In this document: positions 2,890 through 49,363 of the stretch, piece by piece | Layout: every line of letters starts with the position of its first letter | Position numbering within the stretch: position 1 is the stretch's first letter | Origin: a virus | DNA length: 64,000 nucleotides | Direction: 5' to 3' (one strand) | Virus record (IMG/VR): IMGVR_UViG_3300037153_000606 | Program-made: the position numbers and the translations under genes | The notes under the pieces: generated by a model | Database searches by the model: none | The model's input: only the letters and a program-made list of their open reading frames with translations | Told to the model about the DNA's origin: nothing

Positions 2890-4731
2890 ATGGGCAACGA
2901 CGTCGACCGGATGCTGGCCGAGTACGAGAACGCCTCGGACCGGGAGCCGATGCATGGCAAGACCGGCGAGATCCGGCGCAATCCGAGCACCGATCAGAAG
3001 AAGGCTCGACGCCGTCAGGAGGAGACCCGGTTGCTGCGCACCGCCGCGACCGCGTCCACCCTGGACGAGCAGCGCCAGGCCATGGTCGAGCTGGAGACGC
3101 TCCGCACCGAGGCAATGCGCGAGGACGACGAGGAGCGCGCACTCGACATCACCGCCGCCCGGATCGACGACACGTTGATCCCCGGGCACGTGCACGAGCT
3201 GCACACCGCCGCCACCGACTGGCTGCTGGAGATCCCCGAGCACACCGCATCACGCCAGGATGCCGAGCACGCCCTGATCGCCGAGGCGGTGCTGTGGTAC
3301 GGCCGGGTGGATTCCGTCATCAAGGCCGATGGCGAGGAGTTCGCCGAGCAGGCCCGCAACAAGGCCCGGCACGTGGCCAGCCAGTACGGCGAGCACGCCG
3401 AGTCCGCCGCCCAGGCGTTCCTGACCGAGGCGTCCCGGCTGTTGGAGCAGGAGGTCCGCACCGGCACGTTGAGTCACACCGCCGCGCTGATGGACGTGCA
3501 CGACCTGGGGGATCCCGAAGGCGGCATGGTGTCCCATGACGTGCCCGAGACGCCCGCCGAGACGGCCGAGCCGCAGGCCAGGCCGGTGCACGCCCCGGAG
3601 CTGGAATCGCCCAAGGTGGACCGCCCAGCGTGGGCGCACCACCTGCAGGGCGACACCTCCGGGCTGGAGGAGATGAGCCACAACTTCGCCCAGCACGTGC
3701 TGGGCAAGGCCTCTGCGCTCTCCCGCGAGCCGGAGCGCTTCCCCGAGCACGTGGGCGTCGGTGGGCCGCCCATCTCCGCCCAGGACGCTTCGGCGTCCCC
3801 GGGTGTCTACCCGCCTGAGCCGGATACCAGCTCCAACCGCGCCCCGGCACTGCAGGAGATGCAGAACTACGAAGGCTTCGAAGGCACCTCCGTGGTGCCC
3901 GACCCGTCCGGCCAGTCCGAGCAGATGAATGGCGACCAGCGCGCCAGCGAGGACTACGCCCGTCCCCAGGCCGGATTCCCGGTCAGCGGCAGCCACACCC
4001 AGAAGGAGTCATCCGTGACTGATCACGCCCAGTGCCCGACCTGCGGTGGTCTGGGCAGAGTCGCCGTGCGCAAGCAGGCCTATTCCGGCCTGCCCCAGGT
4101 CGACCAGATCGTGAACGCCGACGAGTCGCCGGGCGCGACCCCGTTGCCCACCGACGTGGCATGGCCGATCGTCTGGGACCCGAACGAGATCAACCGGGCC
4201 ATCCAGGAGACCGAGGGCCAGATCGCCCGCCGTCCGGAGGGGTTGCCCGGCCCGCCCGGGGCACCCGGGCACAAGGGTGCGTCCCGCCACGAGGCGCAGG
4301 GTCGAGACAACTCCGGCTGGATCGGCGACATGGGCGCGAAGGGGCCGGACTATCCGGGCTACTCCTACCCGGCCGGTTACGACGGCTCGAACAACCTGGG
4401 CCAGCCGGACCCGGTGTACGGCTACGGCGGGGACGAGCCGCAAGGCCCGAAGCTGCCCTACGGCAACGCCGAGGCGGACGATTTCACCAACAACCCGGGC
4501 GAGCCCTACAACCCGAGCGTGCCGCACAACAACGACCAGGGCTTCCAGGAGGTTGCGCCGGGCTTCGCCACCGCGCCGCCCGGTGGGTCCACCAGTGCCC
4601 CCGGTTCGGTCGGTTCGTCCCGGCAGTCCGCATTGGCCGACCCGTTCATCGCCGCCGCGCAGGAGGAGATCGCCCGTCAGCAGCAGTTGATCCAGACCCG
4701 TTCTTCGATGCTGGCCAGGCAAGGTTCGTGA
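2890..4731 (+). CDS. Head-region (putative virion) protein
   Basis: About 613 aa, follows the late motif, CxxC motif and P/G/Y-rich segments; start could be 2875. Confidence 0.65.
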   Translation: MGNDVDRMLAEYENASDREPMHGKTGEIRRNPSTDQKKARRRQEETRLLRTAATASTLDEQRQAMVELETLRTEAMREDDEERALDITAARIDDTLIPGHVHELHTAATDWLLEIPEHTASRQDAEHALIAEAVLWYGRVDSVIKADGEEFAEQARNKARHVASQYGEHAESAAQAFLTEASRLLEQEVRTGTLSHTAALMDVHDLGDPEGGMVSHDVPETPAETAEPQARPVHAPELESPKVDRPAWAHHLQGDTSGLEEMSHNFAQHVLGKASALSREPERFPEHVGVGGPPISAQDASASPGVYPPEPDTSSNRAPALQEMQNYEGFEGTSVVPDPSGQSEQMNGDQRASEDYARPQAGFPVSGSHTQKESSVTDHAQCPTCGGLGRVAVRKQAYSGLPQVDQIVNADESPGATPLPTDVAWPIVWDPNEINRAIQETEGQIARRPEGLPGPPGAPGHKGASRHEAQGRDNSGWIGDMGAKGPDYPGYSYPAGYDGSNNLGQPDPVYGYGGDEPQGPKLPYGNAEADDFTNNPGEPYNPSVPHNNDQGFQEVAPGFATAPPGGSTSAPGSVGSSRQSALADPFIAAAQEEIARQQQLIQTRSSMLARQGS

Positions 4732-27775: not shown

Positions 27776-29097
27776 TGGTCGTTTACACGGTCTTCAACCA
27801 GGCCAGTGTCGGTATCACGTCCAGCGCCGGGGATACCTCCGGCTACACCATGGCGATGACCTTCAAGGTCATCCAGGCCGCCGCGCTCACCGGTATCTGG
27901 TTCTTCTCGCCGCCGGGTGCGGCGCACCTGCCGGTCACCTGCGGGGTGATGCGCGACTCGGACCAGGCCACCGTCGCGGTGAACAGCGCCCCGTCCTGGT
28001 CCGGCGCGGCAGGCTCCGGCTGGGTGAAATGCAGTTTCGACGGCTCGGTCACGCTGTCCCCGGCGCAGAGCTACAAGGCGTGCATCGTCGCCCATTCCGG
28101 GTTCGACACCTACGGCGCGTCGGCGTTCTACTGGTCCGGTGCCGGGGCGGGCGCGAACGGGATCGTCAACGGGCCGCTGTACGCACCGGGCGCGGCGTAT
28201 GCCAGCCCCGGCCAGGACTCGTTCGTCGGGCAGTCGACCGACACGCTGAGCTTCCCGACCGGCTCGTTCCACGACGGCAACTACGGCATCGACGTCGAGA
28301 TCAGTGCCACCGTCGTGCCGTCCACGACGACACTGCTGGCCGCGTACTCCTTCGACGCCTCCAACGGTGCCGACGACTCCGGCAACGGGCACACCCTGAC
28401 CGACACGACCGGCGGGCACGTCAGCTTCGTCACCGGTAAGGACGGCACCGGCAAGGCGATGCATGGTGATGGTGCCGGTGGGTTGGGTGCGGTGTCGTTC
28501 GGGCAGGCTGACTCGACCTCCTGGCTGAATTCGTCGGTCGGTGACCAGATCACGATCATGGCCTGGGCGAGCGTCAGTCCCGACGAGCACCCGGTCATCT
28601 CCTGCGGCAATACGGCGGACTGGGTCGACAACCTCGCATTGTGGATCATCGGCGGCAACATGTACGTGCTGGTGCCTGACTCCACTGCGTCACAGGCCAC
28701 CCACGGAAGCTTCACCGCGAACACCTGGACCCACTTCGCCGTGGTCTACAACTCGGTGACCGGGGTGGTGCTGCTCTACATCAACGCCATCCTCGCGGCG
28801 GACACCGTGATCTCCGGCGTACTGAACTTCCCCAGCGCGAAATTCACCGTCGGCACCACCGCCGTCTACACCAGCGACAGTGTGGTCAACGGTTCGGTCG
28901 ACGATGTCCGGGTCTACCACGGTGCCTTGACTGCGGCCCAGATCGCGACCTGCATGAACACCTCGGTCGGTACCAAGGCCGACCCGCTGGTGACGGTGGA
29001 TCTCAAGCGCGCCACCGGTTCGGGATGGGCAGACACCGGGATGCAACTGGCCGGGTCGAGCGGCTGGGCGTCGGTGAAGGCACCCAAGCCGCTCTGA
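27775..29097 (+). CDS. DUF4082-like plus LamG (concanavalin A-like) domain protein
   Basis: NYGIDVE; NTWTHFAVVYN...LYIN...GSVDDVRVYHGALT. Confidence 0.75.
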   Translation: MVVYTVFNQASVGITSSAGDTSGYTMAMTFKVIQAAALTGIWFFSPPGAAHLPVTCGVMRDSDQATVAVNSAPSWSGAAGSGWVKCSFDGSVTLSPAQSYKACIVAHSGFDTYGASAFYWSGAGAGANGIVNGPLYAPGAAYASPGQDSFVGQSTDTLSFPTGSFHDGNYGIDVEISATVVPSTTTLLAAYSFDASNGADDSGNGHTLTDTTGGHVSFVTGKDGTGKAMHGDGAGGLGAVSFGQADSTSWLNSSVGDQITIMAWASVSPDEHPVISCGNTADWVDNLALWIIGGNMYVLVPDSTASQATHGSFTANTWTHFAVVYNSVTGVVLLYINAILAADTVISGVLNFPSAKFTVGTTAVYTSDSVVNGSVDDVRVYHGALTAAQIATCMNTSVGTKADPLVTVDLKRATGSGWADTGMQLAGSSGWASVKAPKPL

Positions 29098-29098
29098 C

Positions 29099-29236
29099 TC
29101 ACGAGTGGATGCGGATCTTCTTCGGCAACGGGTGTTTCTTGTCCTCGTCGGGGAGGTATTTCTCGATCAGCCTGGCGAGGATGATGAAGAAGAAACTCGA
29201 ACCGGTCATGACGATCGAGGTGAGGGCGTCACTCAT
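29099..29236 (-). CDS. Small membrane protein (45 aa)
   Basis: RBS GGAG; MSDALTSIVMTGSSFFFIILARL. Confidence 0.5.
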   Translation of the reverse strand: MSDALTSIVMTGSSFFFIILARLIEKYLPDEDKKHPLPKKIRIHS

Positions 29237-29516
29237 TGCACTTGCTCCACAGCATTTGGGGGATTCCACGGAACCCGGCAGTGCACATGGAGTCCAGGTT
29301 GATCCGGGCAGGGCTGCAGCATATGTCGTCCCAGCCGCTCGATTGAACAAAGATTTTACAAGTGGAGCAAGATCCTCTAAAGACAGCCCGGGACGGCAGT
29401 CCTCTAGACCAATTCACAGGCGTCTGCGGCCTGGTTGGTCGATCAACGAAACCGCAAGTGTGACCTCCGCCACAATGAGATCACTGCGGCAACGGGCCCG
29501 GATTCGTCGAACCGTT

Positions 29517-29522
29517 TAGAAT
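29517..29522 (+). promoter_or_regulatory. Putative -10 hexamer TAGAAT for the orphan guide array
   Basis: Ends 12 nt upstream of the first GGC; no convincing -35. Confidence 0.45.
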
Positions 29523-29534
29523 GATGCCGCCCAT

Positions 29535-30087
29535 GGCACGGCTTGGCCGGGCATGCCTTGGCGCGGTTTGGTTCGGCAGTCAGGGCGCGGCCTGGCCCGG
29601 CGCGGCTGGTCAAGGCTTGGCCTGGCATGGCAGGCGCGGCAACGGCTAGGCAGGGCTTGGCCGGGTTTGGTCAGGCTTGGCATGGCAGGCAAGGCGGGGC
29701 CCGGTTAGGTACGGCGAGTTAGGGCGGGGCAGGGCACGGCAGTCGCGGCAAGGCTAGTTAGGGTTCGGCCGGGCTTGGCCGGGTTTGTCAGGGCAGTCGT
29801 GGTTCGGCCCGGTTCGGCTAGTCGGGGCCTGGTTGGGCACGGCAGGCATGGTACGGCTTGGCGAGGCATGGCAACGCAAGGCGAGGCGCGGCAGTCGGGG
29901 TTTGGCTTGTCGCGGCCAGGCACGGTCCGTCCCGGCTCGGTAGTCGTGGTGCGGCTGGGTCCGGCAGGGCTAGGTGCGGCGCGGTGCGGCAGCCGTGGTT
30001 GGGCATGGTTCGGCAAGTCCAGGCTAGGCAGGTCGCGGCAGGCAAGGGCAGGGTCTGGCGGGTTAGGGCGCGGTTGGGCGTGGCAGG
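29535..30087 (+). ncRNA. Orphan GGY-NN pentamer guide array (11 units of about 8-10 pentamers)
   Basis: 5-nt period with GGCA(G) phase shifts every 49-55 nt; flanked by TAGAAT and a hairpin; same grammar as the array next to the RAMP-like gene. Confidence 0.8.
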
Positions 30088-30118
30088 GCCCCGGTTCTTC
30101 ACTAAGTGGAACCGGGGC
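30088..30118 (+). terminator. Hairpin closing the orphan array
   Basis: 10-bp stem GCCCCGGTTC / GAACCGGGGC. Confidence 0.6.
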
Positions 30119-41462: not shown

Positions 41463-44400
41463 GTGATGTTCCGCAAGTTTGCTTCTGCTGAAGTGTTGGC
41501 CGTTGCAAAAGGTGAGTCATTGAAAAAGGATGCTCATCGAGCGGTCTTTTCATTTGTACCTCGACCTGGGTTTCTCTATGTAAGGTCTAGAAGTATATCT
41601 AGTCGCTGCAACGACAACTACGATTTTTTCGGCGCGGACGAGATCGCCAAGTCCTACCGGACCTTCATCGGCAAGCCGGTGTTCGTCAACCACAACAACT
41701 CCGACCACCGCCGGGCCCGGGGGATGGTCATCGACGCGGTCCTGCACCGGGACCGCAACGCCGACGGGTCCCCGGATTTCTGGGTCGAAGCGCTCATGGA
41801 GGTCGACGCCGAGACCTACCCGAAACTCGCCAAGTCGATCCTGTCCGGCGAGATCGACCGCACCTCGATGGGATGCGACGTCGAGTTGTCCAAGTGTTCC
41901 TACTGCGGCAACGAGGCGACCTCGCCGTTGGAGTACTGCCAGCACATTCCCGGCAAGAAGGGCAAGCGGATCTACAAGATGCTTCCCGACGGACGCCGGG
42001 AAGGACAACTCGTCTTCGAGATCTGTTCTGGTTTGTCGTTCTTCGAGAACTCACTGCTGGTGGAGCCTCCGGCAGATCCGACGGCTTATTTCCTTGGGCA
42101 GCCGGTATTGGGACCTGGTTTAGAGCATCTCAGGCAGAAAGCAGCGAATCTGCAGGCCGTTCTGGAGGAACAGCCTGCCGCGCCACGCCATGACATGCCT
42201 AGCCGAGCCTCGACAAACCAAGCCCGGCCGTTGCAGCGTACGGCAGCGGCTGGTGACGACTGGCATGTCGGGATGGACCCTGAGCGCCGCCGCAAGGCCG
42301 AGGAGGCCGCAGGCAAGCTCTGGGAGGGGTTCCACCAGATCATGGATCCGGGGTCGACGCCCGCCTCACGCGTCTCCGACCGCAACATGCGGGTGATGAA
42401 CAACCTGCAGAACCTGGGATATCAGCCGCATCACATCAAGTTCGAGGACGACGAGGACGAAGGGCATCCGTACGCCCACATCCAGGGACCCAAGGGGTGG
42501 TACGGCGTCGACTACGGCGGCCCGCACATGGAGATCCGGCACCAGGCCACCGGCAACGAGTCCCACGACTTGATCAACTTGCAGCACTACGACAAGGAGA
42601 CCCGCGAGCAACACCGGATGCCCGGGTACGGACCGCACGAGGCCGAGGCGGACCTGCACCACTGGGTACACGGCGACCCGGAGGAGACTGGCGGGAGCGC
42701 CGAGTACCTGGAGCACAACGACCCGCGCATCAAGCGGTGGATCGGCCGCCACCAGGCCGCGTTGCAGGTCGAGGCGGTCACCCAGGAGCATGCCGAGGAC
42801 TACCTCAACGAGCACCCGATCAGCCCCACACACATCCTGAGCCGGGTCGAGCAGGCCGCCTCGGACCCGGCCACCCTGCACTCCGGGATGAAGTGGTACG
42901 ACGACGCACACGGGATGGCCAAGACCATGGCCAGCCACCACGGCGTGCCGTTGCAGCACGCGGCAGGTGCACTGGGGGTCTACTCCTCCAGCTCGGCCCC
43001 GGCCCCGAACTTCCACATGGCCTCGATCGCCCTGCATGCCGGAAAGGGGATCTGGGCCCGTGAGTCCGGCGGTTCCGCCGAACACGGTTACAAGGGATCC
43101 CCGATGGCGTCCGAGGCCGATGCCAAGAAGGTGGACCGGATCTTCTCCGGAGAGCACTACAACGACGTCATCGGTTCGTCCAAGACCAAGCACTACGCCC
43201 GGCTGATCCACGACCCGTCCAACGATCACGACGTGGTCATCGACCGGCACGCGGTGGCGGCGGCGATCGGTCATTACGGCAACTCCGGCGAGCCGTACAA
43301 CAACGTGGCCGGGCCGATGGAGAACGTCAACGCCAAGGGGGCGGGCAAGCTCTACGACCGGTTCTCCGACGCCTACCGGCAGGCCACCCACCACCTGAAC
43401 ACGTCGCCCGAGTACAGCCCTCTGCGCAAGCACATGGTCCGGTCCGGACTGCTCGGCGAGGGCGAGAAGATCAAGCCGCACCAGGTGCAGGCGCTGGCCT
43501 GGATCGCGCAGAAGGACATCAGCGACCAGCATGCCCGCAACGACATGACCAACGCCAACCAGCGCGCCATCGACGACTGGCAGAACCACTACACCAGCCG
43601 GTACGGGGTGGACGCGCACCACCCGGTGTCCGGCAAGGGGTTCTACGGCCAGGAGCCGACCCCGGCGAAAGCGGCGAGCATGCAGCGCCTCTCCTACGGG
43701 GAAACGAAAGCCCCTCAGGACGTCGACACGCTGCGCGACGAGCGGTGCGCGATCTGCGGTAACGACACGGCCTACGACGGGCGGGAGTGCCTGGTCTGCG
43801 GGTACATCGCGCCGCCCAAGGCGTTGGGTGACCCGGACGTCGACAAGGCCAAGCATCTGGACGAGTTGAAGCAGTCGGTCGACGACGCGCTCTCCGAGGT
43901 CGACCCGTCCCGGCCGGGTGCGGACTTCGACCCCGGCGACCTGGACGAGATCCAGGCCGAGATCGGTGAGGCGGGCACCCCGCCGATGGTGTGCCCGAAC
44001 TGCGACTCGGTCTTCGACCCGGCCGAGGAAGAGATCAATGCCGGTGATACCTGCCCGGACTGCGGTCAGGCCGAGGTGGCGGAGGCCGAGCCGGAGGAGG
44101 GCGAGGGAGACGCCCAGGATGTGGCCGAGGACGAGGCCACCGAGGGGCTGCCCGGCGAACAGGCCGAGGACCAGGACGTGCCCAGCGGGGACGAGGACGA
44201 AGACGCCGACGAGGACGAGGAAGACGAGGACGGGGAACCAGACGACGAAGACGAGGAGGACGAGGAAGACAAGCGCAGACGTCGTCCTGTTGCCAGCCGG
44301 TCCGCGACCTCGAAGTACCGACCACCATCGAAGGGGTACGACATGCAGAAGGCACTGGCGGCACTGGCCGAGCTGCAGGCCCTGGTCGAGCACCAGCAGC

Positions 44401-45263
44401 ACGAGAACCTGAAGCTGCAGCGGCGGCTCGCCGCCAAGGACAGCCAGATCCAGCGGTTGACCTACGGTCTGCAGGCGATCGCCCAGCATCTCGGCCCCGA
44501 CGTGGACACCCTGGTGCGTTCGGCCATGCTGCGCAAGCGGGCCGACGAGCAGAACCCGGCCCAGCCGGTGCCCGAGCCCGCGCCGGAACCGCCGACCGAG
44601 TCCACCGTGCAGGCCGAGACGCCGGAGGCGTTCGCCGACGTCACCGCGCCGGGCATGGTGCCGGGGTCCACCCAGGACGTGGCCGCCGACGCCGTCTCCA
44701 CCGCGTACACGCCCGGTCAAGACGTGGGCGCGCCGCCACTGCGCCAGTTGGTCGACGTGACCCGGCCCATCGACGGCACCCAGGGACCGCGCCCGTTAAG
44801 CGAGACCAAGACCAACGTGGACGTGCGGGTGGGCAACCCGATGAACCCGCAGACCGCGTTCCCGCTCGGCGGTGACTTCGCCCAGGCGCAGCGCACCGGT
44901 TCGGTCAACGGCGGCAGCGGGGACCTGAAGACGATGGCCTCGATCCGGCTGGCCAGGCTGCGCATCGCGGCCAACATCGAGGACGGCGAGGACCTGGCCA
45001 TCGCGCAGCGCATCGCCGCCGAGCTGGACGTCCCGGCGATCAACGCCGAGATCGCCACGCTGTCCAACGTGATCAAGGCGAGTGCGGCGCGCCGCCAGCA
45101 GCAGCCACCGCCGCGCGGAGTGCCGCCGCGCCCGGCTCCGGGGGTGGGCCGCACCGTTCCGCCGATGACCCGTTCGGCCGGGTTGCGCACCGCATCGCGG
45201 CCGGACGCCGAGGACGCCGACCTGGCGCTGGTTTTCCTCTCCGAGCAAGCCCTGTCCAGCTGA
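41463..45263 (+). CDS. Capsid maturation protease/scaffold polyprotein
   Basis: YRTFIGKPVFVNH, TSMGCDV...CSYC...C.H, FFENSLLVEPPADPTA; acidic and coiled-coil C-terminus; upstream of the capsid genes. Confidence 0.75.
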   Translation: MMFRKFASAEVLAVAKGESLKKDAHRAVFSFVPRPGFLYVRSRSISSRCNDNYDFFGADEIAKSYRTFIGKPVFVNHNNSDHRRARGMVIDAVLHRDRNADGSPDFWVEALMEVDAETYPKLAKSILSGEIDRTSMGCDVELSKCSYCGNEATSPLEYCQHIPGKKGKRIYKMLPDGRREGQLVFEICSGLSFFENSLLVEPPADPTAYFLGQPVLGPGLEHLRQKAANLQAVLEEQPAAPRHDMPSRASTNQARPLQRTAAAGDDWHVGMDPERRRKAEEAAGKLWEGFHQIMDPGSTPASRVSDRNMRVMNNLQNLGYQPHHIKFEDDEDEGHPYAHIQGPKGWYGVDYGGPHMEIRHQATGNESHDLINLQHYDKETREQHRMPGYGPHEAEADLHHWVHGDPEETGGSAEYLEHNDPRIKRWIGRHQAALQVEAVTQEHAEDYLNEHPISPTHILSRVEQAASDPATLHSGMKWYDDAHGMAKTMASHHGVPLQHAAGALGVYSSSSAPAPNFHMASIALHAGKGIWARESGGSAEHGYKGSPMASEADAKKVDRIFSGEHYNDVIGSSKTKHYARLIHDPSNDHDVVIDRHAVAAAIGHYGNSGEPYNNVAGPMENVNAKGAGKLYDRFSDAYRQATHHLNTSPEYSPLRKHMVRSGLLGEGEKIKPHQVQALAWIAQKDISDQHARNDMTNANQRAIDDWQNHYTSRYGVDAHHPVSGKGFYGQEPTPAKAASMQRLSYGETKAPQDVDTLRDERCAICGNDTAYDGRECLVCGYIAPPKALGDPDVDKAKHLDELKQSVDDALSEVDPSRPGADFDPGDLDEIQAEIGEAGTPPMVCPNCDSVFDPAEEEINAGDTCPDCGQAEVAEAEPEEGEGDAQDVAEDEATEGLPGEQAEDQDVPSGDEDEDADEDEEDEDGEPDDEDEEDEEDKRRRRPVASRSATSKYRPPSKGYDMQKALAALAELQALVEHQQHENLKLQRRLAAKDSQIQRLTYGLQAIAQHLGPDVDTLVRSAMLRKRADEQNPAQPVPEPAPEPPTESTVQAETPEAFADVTAPGMVPGSTQDVAADAVSTAYTPGQDVGAPPLRQLVDVTRPIDGTQGPRPLSETKTNVDVRVGNPMNPQTAFPLGGDFAQAQRTGSVNGGSGDLKTMASIRLARLRIAANIEDGEDLAIAQRIAAELDVPAINAEIATLSNVIKASAARRQQQPPPRGVPPRPAPGVGRTVPPMTRSAGLRTASRPDAEDADLALVFLSEQALSS
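42171..42229 (-). repeat. Single GGY-NN unit embedded antisense in the protease gene
   Basis: 10 pentamers plus GGCAGGC junction; TACGCT upstream on the minus strand (42240-42235). Confidence 0.65.
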
Positions 45264-46907: not shown

Positions 46908-47738
46908 ATGCCTCGGCCGCCGTCTCCAACGACTTCGAAGACGTGTCAACGTGACGGTTGCGATAACCGATTCGAAGTCACCCAAGCCAAAGCTCAGAGG
47001 GATCGTCGATTTTGTTCGAAAGATTGCTCGAACAAAGCCACCGCGCTAATCCGTGGCGCTTCGTATCGAGCCAGTCATGGGTATAAGCCGCCAGTTTGTC
47101 CATGTGGTCGTTCTATCCAACCGAGACCGGGCCAGCGGTACGTCTATTCGAAGAAATATTGCGACATGGAGTGTCGTGCTCGATTTAGCCCGAGGCGACA
47201 ACCCAATCCTGAAAAGTGGGGTTCATACACGTGTCGCGTGTGTGGCACTGAATTCACCCGCCGGAAGAACTCTCGTAATGCCAAGATCTATTGCAGCCTT
47301 GCGTGTGCCAACAAGGAGACCAAGAAGAAGCATCACATCGTGTTGCGCGATGACGATGTTGTGTTCGACAGTGCCTGGGAGGCGTTCTTTTACGGCGCGT
47401 GCAAGATCGCGAAGATCCCGATCGAACGGTTCGACCGAGATCATGGTGTTGCCTACGACCCAGAATACCTGGATCGGTGGTACGCGCCAGACTTCTGGTT
47501 GCCCGACGTCCAGGCATGGGTCGGTCGCACCGGCGTTGCGATCGAAATCAAAGGTGTTGAAGACGACCGCGACGAAACCCGGTGGACCGCCTTCCGGTCG
47601 ACGGGAGTCGACCTGGTGGTGATGGACCGGTACCGGATGGAGAACCTGTCTGCACACTCGTTGTCCGACATCCTGCGAGTCGCCACGATGAGGGACAATC
47701 CCGCCTTGCCATGCCAAGCCGCGACACGCCTAGCCTAA
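46908..47738 (+). CDS. Free-standing endonuclease with Zn-ribbon repeats and a PD-(D/E)XK-like domain
   Basis: Three CxxC...(F/Y)CxxxC repeats; DSAWE...YAPDFWLPD...IEIKG; lower GC. Confidence 0.7.
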   Translation: MPRPPSPTTSKTCQRDGCDNRFEVTQAKAQRDRRFCSKDCSNKATALIRGASYRASHGYKPPVCPCGRSIQPRPGQRYVYSKKYCDMECRARFSPRRQPNPEKWGSYTCRVCGTEFTRRKNSRNAKIYCSLACANKETKKKHHIVLRDDDVVFDSAWEAFFYGACKIAKIPIERFDRDHGVAYDPEYLDRWYAPDFWLPDVQAWVGRTGVAIEIKGVEDDRDETRWTAFRSTGVDLVVMDRYRMENLSAHSLSDILRVATMRDNPALPCQAATRLA

Positions 47739-49273
47739 CCTTGCCACGCCGAACCAGGACTGCCGCGCCCTGCCAAGGGTTGCCCCGCCCAACCCAACCG
47801 GGCCTCGCCTGGCACGCCGAGACGAACCCGGCCAAGTACCGCCGTGCCATGCCGCACCTTGGCAGCCTCACCGAGCCATGCCGAGCCATGCCCATCCACG
47901 CCGTGCCCTGACCACCATGCCGTGCCTGCCGAGCCACGCCAAGCCTTGACCCGCCCTGACGGGCCGAGCCTTGCCCTGACTGCCGAACCACGCCAAGCCA
48001 CACCAAGACCCGACCTGCCAAGCCGAGCCGTGCCGAGCCATGCCTGCCCCGCCGCACCACGCCGCACCATGCCGCTGCCCTACCGTGCCGCACCCTGCCC
48101 GCCTTGCCCAGCCAAGACGTGCCACTCCAGGCCAAACCCTGCCCGCCTTGCCTCACCTCGCCGTGGCCCGCCCAACCGCACCGAGCCCCGCCAAGCCTGC
48201 GTCGCCCCGCCGTGACCCGTCACGCCGGGCCCAACCAAACCACGCCTGCCCGACCGAGCCCTGCGTTGCCCTGCCTGGACCAACCGCGCCTCGCCTGCCA
48301 TGCCCCACCTGGCCAGACCATGCCCAGCCGTGCCAGCCTGCCAAACCGAGCCCTACCGAGCCGTACCCAGACGAGCCAAGCCACACCGTGCCCGCCCAAC
48401 CGGGCCGCACCGGGACTCGCCGAGCCCTACCTTGCCTGCCTTGCCGAGCCGAGCCTCGCCAAGCATTGCCATGCCCAGCCGTGCCTGCCGAACCGAGCCC
48501 TACCGGGCCGAGCGGTGCCCTGCCTGGCCTAGCCGCGCCGCGACTGCCCTGCCTTGCCTCACCCAGCCTTGCCGAGCCGCACCAAGCCTTGCCGCGCCTG
48601 CCGTACCTCGCCCAGCCGAGCCCGGACGGACCTAGCCCCACCGCACGGTGCCCTGCCGAGCCATGACTGCCCTGCCCTGCCGCACCGAACCGAGACGTGC
48701 CGGACCACCCGGGCCAAGCCACGACTGCCGTGCCACACCCTGCCGACCATGCCCAACCCAGCCATGCCGAGGCTGCCCCGCCGTACCGGACCCGGCCGCA
48801 CCAAACCAAGCCATGCCTGCCGCGACCTGCGATGCCCTGCGGTACCAGGACATGCCGTGCCTGCCGAGCCGGGACCCGCCCCGCCATGACTAGCCATGAC
48901 CGGACTTGCCCCACCGAGCCTGCCCAGCCACGCCTTGCCCAGACTTGCCAGGCCTTGCCGTGCGCTGCCAGCCGAGCCAAGCCTTGGCTGCCTCGCCACG
49001 CCGAGCCCTGCCGAGCCCACCTAGCCTTGCCCTGCCACGGCTGCCCTGACATGACCCGCCGTGCGATGCCGAACCGGGCCGGACCATGCCTGCCTACCAG
49101 GCCACGCCCCGACTCGTCCCGCCTTGCCTTGCCTGCCGGGCCGAGCCTTGACTAGCCATGCCTAGCCACGCCATGCCGAGGCTGCCCAGCCATACTGCGC
49201 CGTGCCGAGACTTGCCCCGCGACGACCCGACATGCCTGCCCGACCTCGCCACGCCCACCTAGCCGTGACTGCC
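47701..49273 (-). ncRNA. Main GGY-NN pentamer guide array (about 30 units, about 300 pentamers)
   Basis: 5-nt periodicity with GGCAG(G/T/C)C unit junctions; directly downstream of and co-oriented with the RAMP-like gene pair. Confidence 0.85.
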
Positions 49274-49282
49274 ACGAAGCGA

Positions 49283-49320
49283 ACCGCCGGGATCATGCCC
49301 CACCACATGATCCCGGCGGT
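49283..49320 (-). promoter_or_regulatory. Perfect 15-bp hairpin leading into the array
   Basis: ACCGCCGGGATCATG-N8-CATGATCCCGGCGGT. Confidence 0.7.
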
Positions 49321-49363
49321 CCAAAGCCACCCATTCCCTCCCGCGAGACGAGTGGCCGGTCTG

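Follow-up and report, generated by a model that had tools for sequence, protein, structure and literature searches.

A distal vrRNA array in a VIPR-carrying phage genome and its predicted guide against the CBASS effector gene capV

The DNA analyzed here (the window) is a 64,000-nt stretch of the IMG/VR virus record IMGVR_UViG_3300037153_000606, a soil phage genome carrying a VIPR (Viral Interference Programmable Repeat) locus that comprises the effector gene vipr, the accessory gene vap and an adjoining array of guide units (the main array). A further set of guide units, designated array 2, is located 20 kb away in the opposite orientation. Array 2 is interpreted as a second vrRNA array of the same VIPR system in which at least one guide would be directed at capV, the phospholipase effector gene of the cyclic oligonucleotide-based anti-phage signaling system (CBASS), with a likely block of the CBASS operon as the outcome. 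This reading, derived from sequence comparisons, is given a probability of about 0.75. The coordinates of all features are collected in Table 1.

VIPR systems combine a ~20-kDa RAMP protein named Vipr, an accessory protein (vap) and vrRNAs composed of GGY/NN pentamers (bioRxiv 10.64898/2026.04.26.720920; Doudna-lab preprint, 2026). According to the same preprint, a guide is a tandem run of 9-16 YNNGG/GGYNN pentamers in which GGY is conserved and NN varies; base pairing with double-stranded DNA is made by the NN dinucleotides and leaves out one base per unit, in most cases the wobble base of a codon, and it results in repression of transcription. In the arrays termed staggered (legend to its fig. 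S18), the last nucleotide of a vrRNA is also the first of the next one, and neither a tail nor a ribozyme separates the units. The Vipr structures display an RRM core, a G-loop and a thumb (bioRxiv 10.64898/2026.04.26.720927). As published so far, VIPR is aimed at rival phages and satellites and at other VIPR loci. Solo vrRNAs, among them some that hijack a foreign Vipr, have also been described on phage satellites and on VIPR-null SUSP1-like phages (Lopez et al., bioRxiv 10.64898/2026.10.15.759431).

Array 2 and the resident VIPR locus

An initial annotation, made from the sequence letters only, had proposed 11 GGCA-delimited units on the plus strand, about 20 kb from a RAMP-like gene. The autocorrelation at lag 5 over positions 29500-30090 is about 0.5, for a background of 0.26, and no lag-3 signal is present. 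The only other region of the window displaying a comparable 5-nt periodicity is the main array, whose G-rich strand is the minus strand. Tracking of the register along array 2 reveals runs of 8-10 GGYNN pentamers with a slip of -1 at each GGCA-G(T/G)C junction. The ten junction sites are spaced by 54, 55, 54, 54, 49, 49, 49, 49 and 49 nt, and this spacing, together with the register, confirms the count at about 11 units. The unit lengths correspond to 10x5-1 (49 nt) or 11x5-1 (54 nt), in keeping with the 1-nt overlap that defines staggered arrays. A total of 101 pentamers could be parsed, 81% of which conform to GGY, and each unit holds 8-10 pentamers plus the junction pentamer, as in the vrRNAs of VIPR. 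The best self-matches of the 36 guides scanned across the window (one 19-pentamer run being omitted) stay within the shuffled-guide null, which agrees with the lack of self-targeting in VIPR. Contigs covering array 2 from four independent soil metagenome runs are identical, with no variants or joints.

The RAMP-like gene of the initial annotation is vipr, and its distance to array 2 agrees with the one announced. A single-sequence phmmer search relates the 209-aa protein to PDB entry 36pp, the 'SUSP1 Vipr protein', with E = 8.4e-6; a profile built from 32 homologues does so with E = 4.9e-15 over positions 12-189, nearly the full length, and the loop GVGEWRP aligns there to GVGDWRP. The AlphaFold2 (AF2) model has a predicted confidence (pLDDT) of 87.6 and its top Foldseek matches are Csm3/Cas7-type RAMPs. 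Judged by homology and predicted structure, the protein is a Vipr family member with a RAMP fold, the type of effector that characterizes VIPR. A vap homologue directly follows vipr in related loci (74 tblastn match rows); the AF2 model of vap (pLDDT 91) gave no significant PDB match, the weak rows being winged-helix-like. The order vipr-vap-array is kept in ~70 related loci, with the array on the same strand just after vap. The two-gene vipr-vap operon adjoining guides is found at the main locus; array 2 has no adjacent vipr, and exactly one vipr and one vap are contained in the window. With 1.57 kb, the main array is longer than every array beside the ~70 related vipr genes (100-620 nt).

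The two arrays were compared at several levels. GGY conformity amounts to 0.81 in array 2 and 0.79 in the main array, the respective shares of GGC/GGT/GTC are 0.59/0.22/0.12 and 0.61/0.19/0.12, and the junction motif is common to both. In each array the NN composition is that expected for codon positions 1-2 when guides are antisense to the coding strand; the other phases do not fit. The log-likelihood of the antisense reading exceeds that of the sense reading by 0.163 nats per NN in array 2 and by 0.165 in the main array, so that the same decoding polarity, as claimed initially in spite of the opposite genomic orientations, is recovered. Under the same model, 62 other VIPR arrays pooled yield -0.043 nats per NN, a slight lean towards sense, and the antisense guide bias is therefore particular to this phage. 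The first N is rarely C (12%) across all VIPR arrays examined, which may reflect a scaffold or structural constraint; this affects the absolute likelihood values and leaves the antisense-sense contrast intact. No unit of array 2 is repeated in the main array, the best partial NN identity being 50-71%, in accordance with the stated difference between their units, and no sequence similarity is found between the flanks of the two arrays.

Array 2 and the main array are thus statistically indistinguishable. The proposal of a stand-alone guide locus used in trans fits all the sequence evidence, namely the single vipr and vap, the matching statistics and the target matches described below, and array 2 is supported as a vrRNA array served by the Vipr encoded 20 kb away. 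The label 'orphan' used initially is less appropriate, as the contig itself carries vipr, and 'distal array' is the better term.

Table 1. Features of the two arrays, of the resident VIPR locus and of the flanks of array 2
Feature	Coordinates	Strand	Remarks
Array 2, staggered vrRNA array, ~11 units	29532..30089	+	558 nt; 8-10 GGYNN pentamers per unit; 49 or 54 nt each
capV guide unit (predicted)	29894..29938	+	Target pattern GANGGNGGNGTNTGNGCNAANAANCC
Guide unit, probable CD-NTase (CBASS cyclase) motif	29742..29791	+	Decodes L[KN]R[KN]R[DE]LY[FL]A
TAGAAT, candidate -10 element	29517..29522	+	Unique in the 64 kb (both strands); the first pentamer follows after 10-13 nt
Terminal hairpin, terminator-like	30080..30127	+	Free energy (dG) -36 kcal/mol, z = -4.0; 0/200 shuffles fold as well
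45-aa hydrophobic open reading frame, unannotated	29099..29236	-	Convergent with the LamG gene; lies between the upstream operon and array 2
Zn-ribbon-like CxxC-rich open reading frame, 99 aa	30205..30504	+	Directly 3' of the array-2 hairpin
vipr, minimal RAMP effector, 209 aa	49823..50452	-	phrog_4652; no other vipr in the window
vap, accessory protein, 151 aa	49367..49819	-	phrog_15946; directly after vipr
18-bp hairpin between vap and the main array	49281..49322	-	dG -43.5 kcal/mol, z = -4.85
Main staggered vrRNA array, ~30-35 units	47700..49267	-	1.57 kb

Predicted targets of the guides

Target patterns were built according to the published 1-nt-skip rule, to which the code applied in the initial annotation corresponds, and the guide read backwards was used as a control. 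The degenerate reverse-complement NNx reading of the capV guide is [DE]GGV[CW]A[KN][KN]P, which reproduces the peptide DGGVWANNP decoded in the initial annotation; its target pattern codes for DGGVWANNP, the motif that holds the catalytic Asp in the CapV-like phospholipase effectors of CBASS. Two exact matches were obtained in 401 Actinomycetes genomes and none with the backwards control; when up to two mismatches were allowed, the figures rose to ~38 and ~10, respectively. Both exact matches read DGGVWANNP in frame within patatin-like phospholipase open reading frames (ORFs). They are complete (18/18), with the NN dinucleotides on codon positions 1-2 and the skipped base at the wobble position. 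One of them (genome G365) heads a four-gene CBASS operon comprising a phospholipase effector, an oligonucleotide cyclase, an E1-E2 protein and a SAVED-HNH endonuclease. No further match was found in 60 relatives of a genome with an exact match, and the host clade could not be narrowed in this way.

In metagenome contigs the capV guide has at least 120 exact matches, for none with a control guide of similar length from array 2 (29688) in the same collection. The match is in frame within an ORF of at least 150 aa in 77 of the 80 stored metagenome loci, and the GxSxG and GGGxxG patatin hallmarks are present upstream in 63 of the 80. All the target ORFs sampled (40/40) match PADLOC models of CBASS phospholipase effectors, at a mean mutual identity of ~32%. 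Of the 59 loci with a sufficient flank, 49 have a cyclase-like ORF in the same orientation no more than 3.5 kb away; it lies 3' of capV in 36 of these. A unit of the main array, A1_49090 (49090-49061, minus strand), decodes to V[IM][DE]GG[IM] and overlaps the DGG site of capV. Its 10/12 matches there recur in many loci, roughly double what shuffled guides give, and the unit may represent a second, shorter guide to the patatin motif.

A second guide of array 2, at 29742-29791, displays four matches of at least 16/20 (80-90%) in the capV-bearing loci, against a null with a mean of 0.3 and a maximum of 2. All four read LKRHRD[LI][YH]F in the gene adjoining capV, and these genes are SMODS/DncV-like. 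No exact match to this guide occurs in IMG/VR or in the 401 Actinomycetes genomes, and the one 2-mismatch match is at control level; its assignment to a CD-NTase motif is for this reason considered probable only.

Other array-2 guides were searched similarly. The reading AAAYLGHAT of the initial annotation was recovered for the unit at 29943-29987 as the degenerate reverse complement AAA[Y*]LG[HQ]AT. This guide has 6 one-mismatch matches in 301 genomes, for ~10 with the backwards control, and its sole IMG/VR match is out of frame with a stop present and is attributed to chance. Exact 1-nt-skip scans of IMG/VR with guides 29579, 29688, 29742 and 29796 yielded 0 matches each.

A main-array guide, 48544-48490, served as a positive control for the target-finding method. 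Viral contigs of IMG/VR contain 38 sites that it matches exactly (22/22), every one reading [DE]ELGDVLWYAA and 37 of them DELGDVLWYAA; Pfam assigns the three ORFs sampled to MazG. Guides of the published anti-phage type are therefore carried by the phage as well. Unit A1_48706 of the main array (48706-48672, minus strand) decodes to LLA[DE][DE]VG and has 19 matches of at least 12/14 in the capV-bearing metagenome loci, for 4.2 per shuffled guide; one of these reads LLADEVGVGKT in a 909-aa helicase-like ORF (locus L228). Besides the capV guide, no guide matches the CBASS operon of G365 significantly in frame. A comparison of the guides with the vipr and vap genes of 80 relatives produced a single 16/16 match, of unit A1_49133 on locus L016 (2893-2915, minus strand), at the 3' end of a 99-aa ORF located 2 kb upstream of another phage's vipr; it lies outside the wobble register, the skipped base being at codon position 2, and is for this reason probably due to chance.

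Flanks of array 2 and dispersed guide units

The TAGAAT motif that had been noticed upstream of array 2 is present and unique in the window, and it is inferred to be a promoter element of the array. The hairpin reported downstream is real and stronger than noted. Hairpins of -30 kcal/mol or lower end 18% of the related VIPR arrays, compared to 1% of background 70-mers. A LamG gene and a head polyprotein gene had been named as the neighbors of the array. The upstream gene does carry a Laminin_G_3 domain; the downstream 1383-aa ORF displays a NUDIX domain plus PHROGs of unknown function, and a head polyprotein is unsupported. Neither is a direct neighbor, as the 45-aa ORF upstream and the 99-aa ORF downstream intervene. 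The latter resembles the Lar restriction-alleviation family only weakly, below threshold (E = 0.017). A minus-strand sigma-70-like promoter site is found at 29381-29353, near the 45-aa ORF. A plus-strand ORF also spans 29025-29519, with a G+C content at third codon positions of 0.61 against 0.80-0.85 for real genes, and is therefore probably non-coding. Since the intervening 45-aa ORF is convergent, read-through from the LamG operon is less likely and a promoter proper to the array becomes more plausible.

The comparison with related phages advised in the initial annotation was carried out on nine records scanned whole: the complete GenBank genomes of the Gordonia phages Ecliptus and UmaThurman and of the Mycobacterium phages Quico and Philus, and 5 IMG/VR contigs. 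Pentamer arrays were located solely beside vipr in 8 of the 9, and one IMG/VR contig gave no match, so that a distal array is absent from the nine records. A sixth IMG/VR record (L072) gave a blank zero-mismatch scan despite the 282-nt array beside its vipr; the scan was too strict there and is uninformative. A search of IMG/VR for relatives of the phage through the 1383-aa protein retrieved no close one. Among the records searched, a second array of 11 units placed 20 kb from vipr, amid virion genes, is a new arrangement, as the published solo vrRNAs sit on vipr-less elements.

Two isolated vrRNA-like units were also observed in the window. The first (32054-32128, plus strand) consists of 12 in-register GGYNN pentamers with a GGCAG end; it forms an in-frame part of the 1383-aa ORF and decodes in antisense to L[IM]VSVGLSY[CW]TY. 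The other (42174-42229, minus strand) holds 11 pentamers, also with a GGCAG end, and is antisense to a 1266-aa ORF (41463-45263), its antisense reading being LAT[IM][IM]Y[DE]S[KN][KN]R. No target of either was found among the loci collected. Guides seem to be scattered through the phage genome.

In GenBank actinophages, vrRNA arrays are annotated as all or part of a 'hypothetical protein' coding sequence or are unannotated (Philus gene 52, UmaThurman gene 40, Quico 2985-3250), and the products of vipr and vap are likewise labeled hypothetical proteins. The array of Cluster F mycobacteriophages precedes vipr within the early lytic operon, where it follows cro and the antirepressor. In Gordonia phage Ecliptus (10039-11651), a helix-turn-helix gene, vipr, the array and vap are lodged between the genes for the tail assembly chaperone and the tape measure protein, which indicates that VIPR cassettes can occupy structural operons. 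It appears that vrRNA arrays can sit far from vipr, in virion-gene regions and even within large ORFs; surveys confined to the vipr neighborhood consequently undercount guides.

Proposed mechanism, alternative explanations and known systems

The mode of action proposed for array 2 can be summarized as follows. The array would probably be transcribed from its own TAGAAT element and end at the terminal hairpin. By analogy with the published staggered class, the transcript would be cut at the 1-nt-overlapping GGCA-G junctions into about 11 guides of ~49-54 nt. The product of the sole vipr gene would then polymerize on the GGY scaffold and leave the NN dinucleotides exposed, as the published structures suggest, and these would pair with double-stranded DNA under the published rule, every third base being skipped, so that codon positions 1-2 are read and the wobble is ignored. 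The capV guide, and probably the CD-NTase guide, would thereby place a roadblock comparable to CRISPR interference on the CBASS operon of the host or of a resident mobile element. The outcome would be an RNA-guided counter-defense. A roadblock in capV would be polar where the cyclase gene lies downstream, as in the 36 loci mentioned above. As the code skips wobble bases, one guide could bind capV genes whose products share ~30% identity. Because of the antisense bias the guides are also complementary to mRNA, which leaves room, speculatively, for an effect at the RNA level.

A broader proposal can be put forward tentatively, with somewhat less than even confidence: VIPR arrays would be motif-level libraries of counter-defense, in which a single guide spells an invariant catalytic motif and could shut CBASS operons across many hosts. 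The extra array, the solo units and the antisense polarity would then possibly reflect a specialized manner of acquiring or employing guides, for instance with mRNA or the coding strand as the site of action. The VIPR preprints describe nothing of this kind. They present VIPR as a phage weapon directed at rival phages and satellites or, after its transfer to bacteria, at phages. A phage guide that spells the catalytic motif of a CBASS effector would make the programmable silencing of host immunity a third use of VIPR, and would illustrate how the wobble-skipping code lets one guide cover a whole protein family.

A number of observations weigh against array 2 as an active counter-defense locus. 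CBASS proteins are normally made before infection, and a block of transcription after phage entry would not remove proteins already made; a benefit would therefore need lysogeny, a long latent period or an added activity. The presence of a matching capV in the host of the phage is an assumption. CBASS operons are often carried on mobile elements, and the target could consequently count as a rival element. The sequencing runs that contain this DNA are DNA metagenomes only, with no RNA run listed. While the TAGAAT part of the promoter-like signal proposed initially stands, a simple sigma-70 scan of the plus strand retrieved no full -35/-10 promoter and no -35 match, and the terminal hairpin has no U-tract. 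Targets could be assigned to few of the ~11 array-2 guides: one has an exact target family, one a probable target and ~9 have no identified target. Five of these others were searched and none has a credible target, four lacking an exact match and the fifth matching out of frame. Lastly, the genome continues beyond the window and may hold another vipr.

Four alternative explanations were weighed. Array 2 might be functional with its capV and cyclase guides serving competition between mobile elements, through the silencing of CBASS on rival prophages or plasmids, as a form of inter-phage warfare. The nature of the published VIPR targets, the main-array guide with 38 exact matches in phage MazG genes and the frequent location of CBASS operons on mobile elements are consistent with this view, which is nevertheless considered improbable, if not to be neglected: the genes targeted are defense effectors wherever they are located, and in G365 the target is the first gene of a CBASS operon of four genes, on a contig of 90 kb. 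Competition and counter-defense overlap in practice. A different Vipr might also read array 2, either from a second vipr elsewhere in the >110-kb genome, which does extend past the window, or from a co-infecting phage whose Vipr would be redirected, as published for the solo vrRNAs. Such an origin is regarded as quite unlikely in view of the single vipr within 64 kb and of the scaffold, junction and polarity statistics, which do not differ between array 2 and the main array adjoining the resident vipr.

It is similarly hard to credit that array 2 is a decaying partial duplicate of the main array, or what remains of an old insertion, and has fallen out of expression and use. The lack of an RNA run and of a full promoter consensus would suit a relic, and since no relative searched has a distal array there is no argument from conservation. 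A relic would not be expected to equal the main array in GGY conformity with a unit spacing even more regular than that of the main array, to have no unit in common with it, to keep a guide with an 18/18 match to a conserved target, and to be bounded by a -10-like motif that has no second copy in the window and by a stable hairpin at its end. A last explanation, in which the region would be no guide array and would instead consist of G-rich structural DNA of period 5, of a coding region or of a chance repeat, can practically be dismissed. Spurious ORFs do cross the region and GG tracts every 5 nt could form G-quadruplexes. This explanation is contradicted by the periodicity, with its lag-5 value and no lag-3 signal, by the architecture conserved after vipr-vap in ~70 loci, by the composition of the variable dinucleotides, which is that of codon positions 1-2, and by the exact matches to a protein motif.

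The interpretation of array 2 as a second vrRNA array of the resident VIPR can finally be situated among known systems. A CRISPR array was ruled out, as the periods are of 5 and 49/54 nt, no long repeat is conserved and the only RAMP is Vipr; a scan of the window at Rfam gathering thresholds retrieved no family. The VIPR preprints make no mention of CBASS or of anti-defense targets, and no paper joining 'vrRNA' and 'CBASS' was found among those searched. The likeness to the published staggered-array VIPR extends to the SUSP1-like RAMP, the adjacent vap, the GGY/NN pentamers with 1-nt overlaps, the wobble-skipping matches to coding DNA, the absence of self-targets and the location on a phage. 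The present phage differs by its two arrays 20 kb apart with additional isolated units, by guides strongly antisense to coding strands, where published targets are found on both strands, and by at least one guide apparently aimed at a defense effector in place of a rival phage or satellite.

Like array 2, the solo vrRNAs of Lopez et al. (bioRxiv 10.64898/2026.10.15.759431) are encoded away from any vipr and act in trans. They comprise 1-2 guides on vipr-less elements, at sites of vipr-vap1 deletion or as decoys for the Vipr of a helper, whereas array 2 has 11 units, is located in a virion-gene region and belongs to a phage that retains its own vipr. When compared to the preprints, the distal multi-unit array in a VIPR-positive phage, the strict antisense polarity and the predicted guide against a defense effector are new.

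Phages also possess anti-CBASS proteins, such as the phosphodiesterase Acb1 and the nucleotide sponge Acb2, which act on the cyclic-nucleotide signal once it is made; the mechanism proposed here would instead rely on RNA-guided binding to the effector and cyclase genes. A phage-encoded CRISPR-Cas system is directed by Vibrio phage ICP1 against the PLE anti-phage island of its host, by means of contiguous spacers and DNA cleavage. Both systems would be RNA-guided responses to an anti-phage element, that of the present phage employing gapped, pentamer-coded guides with binding and repression as published for VIPR.

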